From NCBI RefSeq assembly GCF_003334405.1, contig NZ_QOWM01000018.1: a DNA stretch of 64,000 nt; one strand, 5' to 3'. Below, one piece after another: positions 24,813 to 60,257 of the stretch. The notes under the pieces were generated by a model. That model did no database searches. It was not told where the DNA came from and saw nothing but the letters and a program-made list of their open reading frames with translations. A program made the position numbers and the translations under genes. The stretch is from Escherichia coli. Its GTDB lineage: Bacteria; Pseudomonadota; Gammaproteobacteria; Enterobacterales; Enterobacteriaceae. Within the stretch, counting starts at the first letter, position 1. The number at the start of each line of letters is the position of its first letter.

Positions 24813-24899
24813 GTTAGTTGAAAAGAGATTACCTCCGGTCAGGGCCACCAACTCTGTAACGGAACAGTAAAAAAACCGACCTCACCAGTCGGTTTTTTT
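24813..24899 (+). ncRNA. Candidate trans-acting antitoxin sRNA (~85 nt)
   Basis: Promoter TTGCTA-17-TATTAT at 24778-24806; 5' 24 nt (24814-24837) match 22/24 the + strand at 24626-24649 inside the toxin leader; ends in hairpin ACCGAC-N7-GTCGGT plus T7 (24875-24899). Confidence 0.4.
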
Positions 24900-25052
24900 A
24901 CATCTGTTGTTTCTCAAAATCCGCCCGACATGCCCGTCACACCGGGGAAACTCATGCTCTGAATCAGAACCAACCATCTCAACTTTGCCGTCTCCTGAAA
25001 AAACTGGCACATTCAGTTCGATAACTACCCATAAATACAGAGAGAAAATCCG

Positions 25053-25375: not shown

Positions 25376-25528
25376 TTAACGTTTAACTTCGTAGGCTAAC
25401 GTTGCCACAAGCACTGTGTTTCCCTGCTGGAGCCGGAGTCCGCAAAGCGAATCCCTCACCATCCAAACAAAACACAGAATCGTCACACAGATGACGATTA
25501 ACATCATTAAAAACGTTCGCTGTGGCAT
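25376..25528 (-). CDS. pndA: Hok-family type I toxin PndA (50 aa)
   Basis: Translates to MPQRTFLMMLIVICVTILCFVWMVRDSLCGLRLQQGNTVLVATLAYEVKR, Hok/Gef pattern; overlapped in another frame by the track ORF 25383..25667 (mok/pndC-like). Confidence 0.85.
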   Translation of the reverse strand: MPQRTFLMMLIVICVTILCFVWMVRDSLCGLRLQQGNTVLVATLAYEVKR

Positions 25529-25819
25529 CATAGCCCCTCCATTGCCTTACGGCGGTTATCGGGCTACTATAATGTTGTCTAGGCATTACAGTAGAGCCCT
25601 TGGTTGATTGATAAAAAAATCTCCAGGGGCTTTCTGCTGTATACCGTCCACAAAACGCTTTCGGCATACAGCCTCAAGCGCCCGCAGCTATTCTAACGAC
25701 TTTCGTATCTGCAACAATCCTTTTATCGCACGGCTAATTCCTCTGGTTAGCTCTTATCGCCTGCAAATAAATTTTTAACCTTTCCGTTTGATTTAAATTC
25801 CAGAAATGGAGACTTTGTC

Positions 25820-57063: not shown

Positions 57064-57321
57064 ATGGATGAAGAAAGGGGGTTTTCACTCAGTTATGAAC
57101 AACTGACCCGGTTTGCGGAAAAACGCATCCGGGAATGCAATCTGGACAGCCAGGGCGCGATTTATCTCTGCGAGTCAGCCAAAGCCGGAGCCGTGCTGAT
57201 CTTCTGGCATGAACTGGCCATAAATGGCTATGCCTCAATGAATGCCATAAAGAGACAAGAGATCATTGACGCCGACTTTCAGCGCCTCAGAAACCTCATC
57301 TGGCCGGAGGATGACAGGTAA
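57064..57321 (+). CDS. Hypothetical protein (85 aa)
   Basis: ORF coupled by ATGA overlap to the next gene. Confidence 0.3.
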   Translation: MDEERGFSLSYEQLTRFAEKRIRECNLDSQGAIYLCESAKAGAVLIFWHELAINGYASMNAIKRQEIIDADFQRLRNLIWPEDDR

Positions 57322-57911
57322 TGACCCAGAGCCGCCGACCGTCGCCACTGCAGCGGAGAGTGCTGATTGTGCTGGCTGCCCTTGATGAAAAACGGCCGGG
57401 CCCCGTGCTGACGCGGGACCTGGAACGGGTGCTGGAGCGAAGCGGGGAAGCCCCGGTCTACGGGCCAAACCTGCGCGCCTCCTGCCGTCGTCTGGAGGAT
57501 GCCGGCTGGCTGCGTACCCTGCGCGCCCCGAACCTGCAGCTGGCAGTGGAGCTGACGGACGCCGGCCGGGCCGTGGCACAGCCTCTGCTGCTGGCAGAAC
57601 AGGACCGCATCCGGGCAGAACAGCGTGCGGCAGAAGTCGTCGTACTGCCGCTGGTCCCGGCAGCAGGTCTGCCCGCAGGCGGCACTTCTGCCACTGATCT
57701 GGCGGTGGAGCTGAACGGCATGACGTATCAGGCCTGCCGTGGGGATTTTGTGGTGCGTCTCGACGGCAGCACCTGTCTGCAGTTATGGAATAAAGAAGGC
57801 AGAGTGGTACGCCTGGAGGGCGATCCGCTGGAAGTGGCGCAGTGGCTGCAGGCCTGTCACGATGCCGGAATGGAGGTTCGTGTACAGGTTAATGAAAGCG
57901 TCACCCCGTAA
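57321..57911 (+). CDS. Hypothetical protein with winged-helix-like N-terminus (196 aa)
   Basis: N-terminal RRVLIVLAALDEK...LTRDLERVLERSG segment resembles a DNA-binding wHTH. Confidence 0.35.
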   Translation: MTQSRRPSPLQRRVLIVLAALDEKRPGPVLTRDLERVLERSGEAPVYGPNLRASCRRLEDAGWLRTLRAPNLQLAVELTDAGRAVAQPLLLAEQDRIRAEQRAAEVVVLPLVPAAGLPAGGTSATDLAVELNGMTYQACRGDFVVRLDGSTCLQLWNKEGRVVRLEGDPLEVAQWLQACHDAGMEVRVQVNESVTP

Positions 57912-58387: not shown

Positions 58388-58423
58388 CCTTCCATGCCGC
58401 GCCAGCAGCATGGAAGGCGGCAT
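58388..58423. repeat. 29-bp hairpin-containing repeat, copy 1
   Basis: ATGCCGCGCCAGCAGCATGGAAGGCGGCA, also at 60964-60993 with 1 mismatch. Confidence 0.5.
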
Positions 58424-58515
58424 ATTATCAACCATGAAAAATCACCTGGCGGAAAATTTACTAATTTATGGATTGTGATATTATTAAAGAGTAGAACAAG
58501 CCAGCTGAGGTATTT

Positions 58516-59109
58516 ATGGGAAAAAATCAGGAAGAAAGGAAGCCCCCCATCATTGTGGTGAAAAAACGTCGTACTTTTTCGCCACCTTCCTTATCCGAAA
58601 AAACAGATATTATCGCACCTGCATTTACTGAACAGGCGGCAGAATTCCCCCCCGTCGGAATAAATTCATCTGCCGTCGAAAAACATATCCCCGAAGCACC
58701 AGCCCGGAAGAAGAAAAAGAAAAGACATCGTTTCCCACGTCCCGCCCACTGGACCCGTGAGTATACTCACGAGTGCGTGGAAAAAATAAAGACCCTGTTT
58801 CCTCATCTTCGTGCTGAAGGCGGTGGATTTATTCCCCTGAAAATTGGCATCAGCAATGATATTTCGGCATTTCTGGCAGAAAACCCGGATACAGAACTGT
58901 CCATGGACGAATGGTTCTGTGCAGTGTCCTGCATCACCTCCCGCCGCGTATATCTGCAGCGGACCTCTGTCGCCGGCGTCCCTCGTTATGGGCTGGATGG
59001 TCATCCCGATGGGCAGGTCTCAGAAACTGAAGCACAGAGTGCTGTTCAAAGACTGGCGATAATAGAACAACGGTGGCTCAGGATGAAGGAACGGCAGACT
59101 GAGCAATAA
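58516..59109 (+). CDS. ProQ/FinO-domain RNA chaperone (FopA-like)
   Basis: FPHLRAEGGGFIPLKIGI and YL...G..RYGLDGHPDG match ProQ N-domain motifs (FPHCF...PLKIGI; DLDGNP). Confidence 0.75.
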   Translation: MGKNQEERKPPIIVVKKRRTFSPPSLSEKTDIIAPAFTEQAAEFPPVGINSSAVEKHIPEAPARKKKKKRHRFPRPAHWTREYTHECVEKIKTLFPHLRAEGGGFIPLKIGISNDISAFLAENPDTELSMDEWFCAVSCITSRRVYLQRTSVAGVPRYGLDGHPDGQVSETEAQSAVQRLAIIEQRWLRMKERQTEQ

Positions 59110-59390: not shown

Positions 59391-60257
59391 TTAACGCATA
59401 ATTACCCGTGATTCTTTCCTGGTAACGTAAGTACAGTTATCCGGAACCTCCTCCATAATAAAAGACATGGCTCCAATTTTTACATTACTGCCTATTTTTA
59501 CGTTAAGCCCGATAATACACGTATGGGCACCTACATCGACATTATCACCAATAACGATATAATTCTCTCTGCTGTCAGATTCCTTTTCGCCAATGGTCGT
59601 ATTCTGCCGTATAATCACATTCTCACCGATCTTTACATTACCGTGAATGACGACACCTGAATGGTGGGGCAGCACGAGTCCTTTACCAATCTGCGCCCCC
59701 AGGCCAATATCACATCCATACTTTGCCATAAGCGCATTTTTTATCTTGATCGCACATTTTCGTTGTTTTTTATTCCCCGATATATACATTTCATTAGCCA
59801 GACGCCACCACAGAAGAAAACCTCTCTGCCTCTGCATACCGTTCCTGATAAGCCGGTGAAAAACAAACTTATCCCGCATGATAACTTCTGCTTTCCAGTA
59901 TTCCAGAAGATGACGTTTTTTTCCTGATAATAAAAATGTACCAATATGGATATAAGAAATAGGATTTTTTATCAGCATACGCAAATTTTCAGAAAACAAT
60001 GAATACAGATGTATTTTATATACACAGATAAAACCGCGCAACAGACATAAATATGACAGTAGCAATGAAAAAGCAGAGAGTGTGGGTGATACAGAAAAGT
60101 AACTGTCAGACATTAAATCTGATGCATCGATAAACAGACGCCCCAGCAGATGCACCTGTAATGCAACGATTTTGCCGTGTCTGCTACAGAAGTAATACAC
60201 AAATTTCCGGGGATTCTGCCTTAGCATTTTGATATATTCAGATACGGTAAATCTCAC
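59391..60257 (-). CDS. Serine O-acetyltransferase-like (CysE/WcaB-type) left-handed beta-helix acyltransferase
   Basis: C-terminal hexapeptide repeats (GLGAQIGKGLVLPHHSGVVIHGNVKIGENVII) preceded by a helical segment arranged as in CysE; AT-rich; start uncertain. Confidence 0.6.
   Translation of the reverse strand: MRFTVSEYIKMLRQNPRKFVYYFCSRHGKIVALQVHLLGRLFIDASDLMSDSYFSVSPTLSAFSLLLSYLCLLRGFICVYKIHLYSLFSENLRMLIKNPISYIHIGTFLLSGKKRHLLEYWKAEVIMRDKFVFHRLIRNGMQRQRGFLLWWRLANEMYISGNKKQRKCAIKIKNALMAKYGCDIGLGAQIGKGLVLPHHSGVVIHGNVKIGENVIIRQNTTIGEKESDSRENYIVIGDNVDVGAHTCIIGLNVKIGSNVKIGAMSFIMEEVPDNCTYVTRKESRVIMR

Follow-up and report, generated by a model that had tools for sequence, protein, structure and literature searches.

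The stretch of 64,000 nucleotides analyzed here (the window) carries, a few kilobases from its replicon, an intact fopA (yafB) ortholog of an I-complex plasmid of the IncZ/K2 type, whose product very probably chaperones the antisense RNA Inc and would in this way keep plasmid copy number low. What the window itself establishes is orthology, domain, fold, and key RNA-binding residues, together with an RNA control module that is present and conserved. The chaperone role of FopA on the replication antisense RNA is already known, having been published in 2020 and reviewed since, and what the locus adds is only that this protein and its RNA module also occur together with a hybrid replicon of the IncZ/K2 type. 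In E. coli and Salmonella, resistance genes are carried to a major extent by I-complex plasmids (IncI1, B/O, K, and Z), whose cost to the host is set by copy-number control. The features discussed below are collected in Table 1.

Table 1. Features of the fopA locus, the replicon, and other elements of the window, with the basis for each assignment
Feature	Position	Strand	Basis or remark
fopA (yafB) CDS, 197-aa FinO-domain RNA-binding protein	58516..59109	+	ORF, Pfam PF04352, identity to pCol1B9 FopA
Candidate fopA promoter TTTACT-16-TATTAT, extended TG	58457..58484	+	Consensus scan only
fopA ribosome-binding site GAGG	58507..58510	+	Read from sequence
repA, 290-aa IncFII-family initiator	61805..62677	-	TIGR03474, 563 bits (cut-off 447)
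Leader peptide ORF (repY/repB type), 31 codons	62665..62760	-	Sequence and translation
repA mRNA leader	62690..62844	-	Rfam RF01087 PK-repZ, full-length, 134.8 bits (gathering score 44)
Stem-loop I loop TTGGCGGAA	62813..62805	-	In repA mRNA leader; complementary heptamer
Pseudoknot partner TCCGCCA	62697..62691	-	Complementary to stem-loop I loop TTGGCGGAA
Predicted Inc (RNAI) antisense RNA, about 70 nt	62773..62846	+	Complement of PK-repZ stem-loop I; ends inferred
Candidate Inc promoter TTGAAT-17-TATACT	62738..62766	+	Consensus scan; sequence conserved with pCol1B9
C4 antisense RNA (phage P1/P7 type)	63697..63784	+	Rfam RF01695, full-length, 77.6 bits
sok antitoxin RNA	25526..25683	-	Rfam RF01794, 134.2 bits
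AgrB-like RNA	24814..24901	+	Rfam RF02891, 58.5 bits
29-nt palindrome ATGCCGCGCCAGCRGCATGGAAGGCGGCA, two copies 2.57 kb apart	58394..58422, 60964..60992		Sequence comparison
IS66-family (ISCro1) transposase-gene stretch, 62 nt, about 90% identical	58328..58389		Matches in many plasmids
Overlapping ORF pair, 85 and 196 aa, ATGA junction	57064..57321, 57321..57911	+	Upstream of fopA
Serine/colanic-acid-type O-acetyltransferase homologue, hexapeptide repeat	59391..60257	-	Best NCBIfam matches all below cut-off

The fopA frame comprises 197 codons, begins with ATG, and has its GAGG ribosome-binding site 5 nt upstream; the product has a mass of 22.4 kDa and a pI of 9.4 as computed from the sequence. 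Pfam places the ProQ/FINO domain (PF04352) at residues 84 to 186 with an E value of 1.5e-12, covering model positions 4 to 102 of 109. Residues 1 to 80 carry a net charge of +10 and include the basic stretches VVKKRR and RKKKKKRHR, so that both the ProQ/FinO domain and the basic N-terminal extension described in a first-pass annotation of this DNA are confirmed. Nothing follows the last helix of the FinO domain, and the protein is without the linker and C-terminal domain of the ProQ type. Neither the NCBIfam ProQ model PRK04950 (28.3 bits, cut-off 127) nor the FinO model PRK13754 (27.6 bits, cut-off 136) reaches its threshold. Scores this far below the cut-offs, together with the PF04352 match, place the protein in the family but as neither ProQ nor FinO proper.

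Upstream of the gene, the stretch from 58425 to 58515 is kept at about 91 to 96% in many plasmids, and the segment 58457..58510 within it holds a candidate promoter and ribosome-binding site of fopA as read from the letters. The ISCro1-like stretch just upstream of this conserved promoter region is probably an IS66-family remnant. Further upstream lies a pair of overlapping ORFs for which the search found no NCBIfam match; ORF pairs of the same size, annotated as hypothetical proteins, occur upstream of fopA in the comparison loci L001, L002, L004, and L005, and in pCol1B9 a same-size pair lies on the side of fopA that faces yagA. The acetyltransferase gene between fopA and the replicon is accessory and is missing from pCol1B9 at that position. 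Two copies of the palindrome ATGCCGCGCCAGCRGCATGGAAGGCGGCA bracket fopA and the acetyltransferase gene, and the two sites show no similarity to each other beyond the palindrome itself.

The closest characterized relative of the window protein is FopA (formerly YafB) of the IncI1 plasmid pCol1B9 of Salmonella Typhimurium SL1344 (Gerovac et al., RNA 2020; PMC7491321). As the pCol1B9 reference we used NC_017718, in which fopA (L003 5713..6315) was picked out by the adjoining yagA, as described in PMC7491321. The two proteins share 86% identity and 93% positives over 194 residues, with no gaps and 28 substitutions, and the two genes are 92% identical at the DNA level. Near-identical proteins, up to 98.5% identical and carrying the family name, are found in public plasmid records. 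Indeed, a tblastn search returned homologues in 3,216 plasmid records, more than 2,700 of them with a match over at least 80% of the protein. The DNA around fopA is 96 to 98% identical to I-complex conjugative plasmids of E. coli, Salmonella, and E. albertii. These are typed as IncK2/Z or IncI-gamma/K1 and annotate the gene as "ProQ/FINO family protein," and the plasmids nearest to the window are of type IncK2/Z.

Across 25 homologues, with identities down to 33%, 34 alignment columns are invariant, taking in an N-terminal P-x-I-x-V-K-K-x-R motif and the core of the FinO domain, and the window protein keeps every one of them. Against a 64%-identical homologue the dN/dS ratio is 0.33, with a significant synonymous excess in each of two halves (p = 0.00019 to 0.0016), and fopA is under purifying selection. 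The corresponding ratio against pCol1B9 fopA is 0.55 (p about 0.07) and that of the FinO domain 0.68, neither significantly off neutral in that pair. This last comparison, and the IS66-like fragment just upstream, are what could be cited for fopA being a decaying or non-functional remnant on the plasmid backbone. Such a remnant is extremely unlikely, however, with a frame that is intact and full length, a ribosome-binding site, a conserved upstream sequence, all invariant positions retained, the lower dN/dS against the more distant homologue, and the large number of plasmid records matching most of the protein. As a separate observation, fopA appears fast-evolving for an RNA chaperone, in one small pairwise sample in which relaxed and diversifying selection are inseparable.

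An AlphaFold2 model built from the alignment of 25 homologues reaches pLDDT values above 90 for residues 80 to 196, while residues 1 to about 75 are of low confidence and are predicted to be disordered. When the model was compared with the PDB by Foldseek, significant matches were to FinO-domain structures only, with RocC (7rgt and 7rgu), FinO (1dvo), Legionella Lpp1663 (6s10), and Neisseria NMB1681 (3mw6) at the top; of these, 7rgu is a complex of RocC bound to terminator RNA. A sequence search of solved structures gave weak matches to ProQ and RocC, and the fold comparison is the more informative of the two. Tyr146 and Arg157, named as key RNA-binding residues of FopA (PMC7491321), are present in the window protein at the FopA positions and are invariant across the 25 homologues.

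The replicon near fopA has the parts expected of an antisense-controlled system. Its repA mRNA leader is a full-length PK-repZ match, in which the loop of stem-loop I and the pseudoknot partner are complementary, and the leader peptide ORF ends in a TGA stop that overlaps the GTG start of repA (13 nt overlap); from this arrangement the leader peptide reads as translationally coupled to repA. The first-pass annotation had proposed a coupled leader peptide, antisense-RNA control of the replicon, and a spacing of roughly 3 kb from fopA, and all of these are borne out: the fopA stop lies 2.7 kb from the 3' end of repA, 3.6 kb from PK-repZ, and about 3.7 kb from the antisense RNA. A fopA homologue and PK-repZ are also neighbors in three other I-complex loci (L002, L003, which is pCol1B9, and L005). 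The initiator itself belongs to the IncFII family, and its comparison with the 343-aa RepZ of pCol1B9 gave no significant similarity. The combination of a PK-repZ match with an IncFII-family RepA indicates an IncFII-type initiator under the control of an I-complex RNA module. IncK2 and IncZ have been described as a separate repA clade within the I-complex, with the same layout of repA, leader peptide, and RNAI (PMC10286972); the hybrid replicon is this existing IncZ/K2 type and no new arrangement.

The complement of stem-loop I is the predicted Inc RNA, which would begin with an unpaired 5' tail, continue in a long hairpin that has CGCCAA as its loop, and end in the U-rich 3' tail UUUUCCUUUU; in architecture and U tail it agrees with the Inc of pCol1B9. 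Its predicted folding energy is -25.9 kcal/mol (z = -3.3). The leaders of the window and of pCol1B9 are nearly identical except in the upper stem of stem-loop I. Likewise, an alignment of four Inc alleles (those of the window, pCol1B9, and two further plasmids) shows variation in the upper stem only, with the 5' tail, stem base, loop, and U tail unchanged throughout.

What FopA does has been determined on pCol1B9. The FopA protein itself was detected by tagging or mass spectrometry. Inc, which is roughly 70 nt long and antisense in cis to the repZ leader, dominates the RIP-seq reads, with repZ mRNA only co-enriched (PMC7491321). In vitro, the purified protein has an affinity of about 1 uM for Inc, for the repZ leader, and for the duplex already formed by the two; with FopA present, Inc-repZ pairing is about 7-fold faster in vitro and Inc is shielded from RNase A (PMC7491321). 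A later review gives the copy-number outcome of FopA as fact (PMC9977716).

FinO-domain proteins bind the terminator hairpin and U-rich 3' tail of RNA. By analogy, the FopA of the window would bind its constitutively made, roughly 70-nt Inc (RNAI), and these same two elements of the RNA are the probable contact sites. Binding would protect Inc and speed up kissing-loop pairing with stem-loop I of the repA leader. Inc pairing would in turn keep the leader peptide from being translated and the pseudoknot, which repA translation needs, from forming, so that less RepA would be made and copy number would stay low. That the window allele binds the window Inc and accelerates its pairing, and that Inc is its main ligand, we infer from the 86%-identical FopA of pCol1B9 and the same Inc/PK-repZ module. 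On this footing, the proposal of a dedicated plasmid RNA chaperone working through the replication antisense RNA has been substantiated. For the proposed tuning of copy number, the antisense-RNA route stands, and the effect in cells does not yet stand with it: a fall in copy number through FopA would be expected by analogy, and direct measurement exists for the distant PcnR only.

The main rival to a chaperone of Inc is a repressor of the kind described for PcnR, the ProQ/FinO protein of IncI2 mcr-1 plasmids. Here the protein would repress RepA mainly by binding directly to a stem-loop of the repA/leader mRNA, independently of Inc, and would block translation of the leader peptide. The target of PcnR is the first stem-loop of the repR mRNA, and copy number increases about 10-fold when PcnR is deleted (PMC8053102); between the window protein and the ProQ/FinO protein that occupies the PcnR position in IncI2, identity is 35%. 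Further, the affinity of FopA for a repZ 5' UTR fragment, about 1 uM, is the same as for Inc. Because FopA binds the leader and the duplex as well as Inc in vitro, the antisense RNA need not be the sole route. We nevertheless consider direct repression as the main mode unlikely. Inc dominates the FopA RIP-seq, with repZ mRNA merely co-enriched; the window protein is much closer to FopA than to PcnR; and the target RNAs differ, since the IncI2 locus that we fetched gave no PK-repZ match.

The first-pass annotation had also raised a role in transfer and an action on type I toxin RNAs. With a broader or different function of this sort, the protein could regulate conjugation in the manner of FinO, or could chaperone other plasmid RNAs (sok-type or C4-like) and chromosomal RNAs. 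It is a FinO-family protein carried by a conjugative plasmid, and other structured antisense RNAs are present in the window, namely sok, C4-like, and AgrB-like RNAs. The sok and AgrB matches lie about 700 nt apart, which suggests two type I toxin-antitoxin-like RNA loci. In addition, FopA enriched a few chromosomal RNAs, which the text of PMC7491321 names as STnc1590, STnc700, and mgtM. Even so, the top FopA ligands given in that text are Inc, repZ, and these three chromosomal RNAs, and type I toxin RNAs are not among them. The toxin-related RNAs are thus present as had been noted, and the part of the claim that concerns FopA is not sustained by the paper's text. The C4 match is flanked by the replicon and by the traA/traB side of the plasmid; loci L002 (14195..14282) and L005 (10622..10709) have the match at the corresponding place, there adjoining a gene annotated as "ash family protein."

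With respect to transfer, a TraDIS study of pMS7163B (CP026855), which has an IncB/O backbone and an IncZ replicon, is the nearest functional data set. Its gene called proQ is 603 nt long and is separated by 2.5 kb from a repA of 873 nt. The plasmid tolerated insertions in proQ well (Log2MPM 12.96), maintenance needed the replicon and parAB only, and the gene was called for neither maintenance nor conjugation. Counted against the chaperone reading, the result shows dispensability only, and we took this proQ as the counterpart of fopA by size and position, not by sequence. Its Log2FC of +2.2 after relative to before conjugation could be read as a sign of conjugation control, but many presumably neutral genes in the same experiment lie at +2 to +4.7, and the sole conjugation repressor named by the authors is impB. 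Moreover, a scan of the window at the Rfam gathering threshold gave no FinP match, and the FinO model scores far below its cut-off, as reported above. Together these results make a broader or transfer-related role quite improbable, and the transfer role proposed at first pass found no support.

The variable upper stem of Inc raised co-adaptation of FopA and Inc alleles as a candidate explanation, which was rejected on the example of pRWS532. The FopA of this plasmid has only 5 amino acid differences from the window protein; its RepA has 343 aa, and its Inc stem is exactly the one found in pCol1B9, a plasmid whose FopA shares just 86% identity with the window protein. In the window, the near-identical FopA is paired with a K2/Z-type Inc stem and an IncFII-type RepA. 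This uncoupling of alleles fits recognition by FopA of the invariant parts of Inc. A tentative extension, which we hold to be possible rather than probable, is that FopA reads only the invariant Inc scaffold (5' tail, stem base, CGCCAA loop, and U tail) and would then act in trans on co-resident I-complex plasmids of other incompatibility groups. If so, a trans-acting FopA would link the copy numbers of co-resident I-complex plasmids. FinO and RepX of pRSF1010 provide a precedent for linked copy numbers between plasmids.

Among known systems, FopA of pCol1B9 is the closest to the window protein. The two are of similar length (200 aa in pCol1B9, 197 aa in the window) and mass (about 22 kDa), each has two basic N-terminal stretches followed by a FinO domain, and each is encoded a few kilobases from a replicon with the Inc/PK-repZ module. 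The window protein differs at 28 positions and stops earlier at its C terminus. The neighbors of fopA also differ, being the acetyltransferase gene and small ORFs in the window and yagA and yafA in pCol1B9. Likewise, the window Inc departs from that of pCol1B9 in its upper stem, and the initiator is an IncFII-family RepA of 290 aa in place of the 343-aa RepZ.

PcnR (Yang et al., NAR 2021; PMC8053102) is a ProQ/FinO protein of about 198 aa, likewise encoded near repA, which represses RepA synthesis and copy number. It has the N-terminal PxIxVKKRR motif and the FinO-domain core in common with the window protein. In contrast, the two are only 35% identical, PcnR binds the repR leader stem-loop directly and independently of an antisense RNA, and the window has a PK-repZ leader, which the fetched IncI2 locus does not; the window protein thus falls outside the PcnR group. 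FinO of F-like plasmids resembles the window protein in fold, with 1dvo among the best structural matches, and in being a plasmid chaperone for a cis-antisense RNA and its mRNA. Unlike the window protein, FinO has a different N-terminal region and serves FinP/traJ fertility inhibition, that is, the control of conjugation and not of replication. Finally, the IncZ/IncK2 replicons of the I-complex, with repA, the leader peptide gene repB, and RNAI, are the same as the replicon of the window, with no notable difference.
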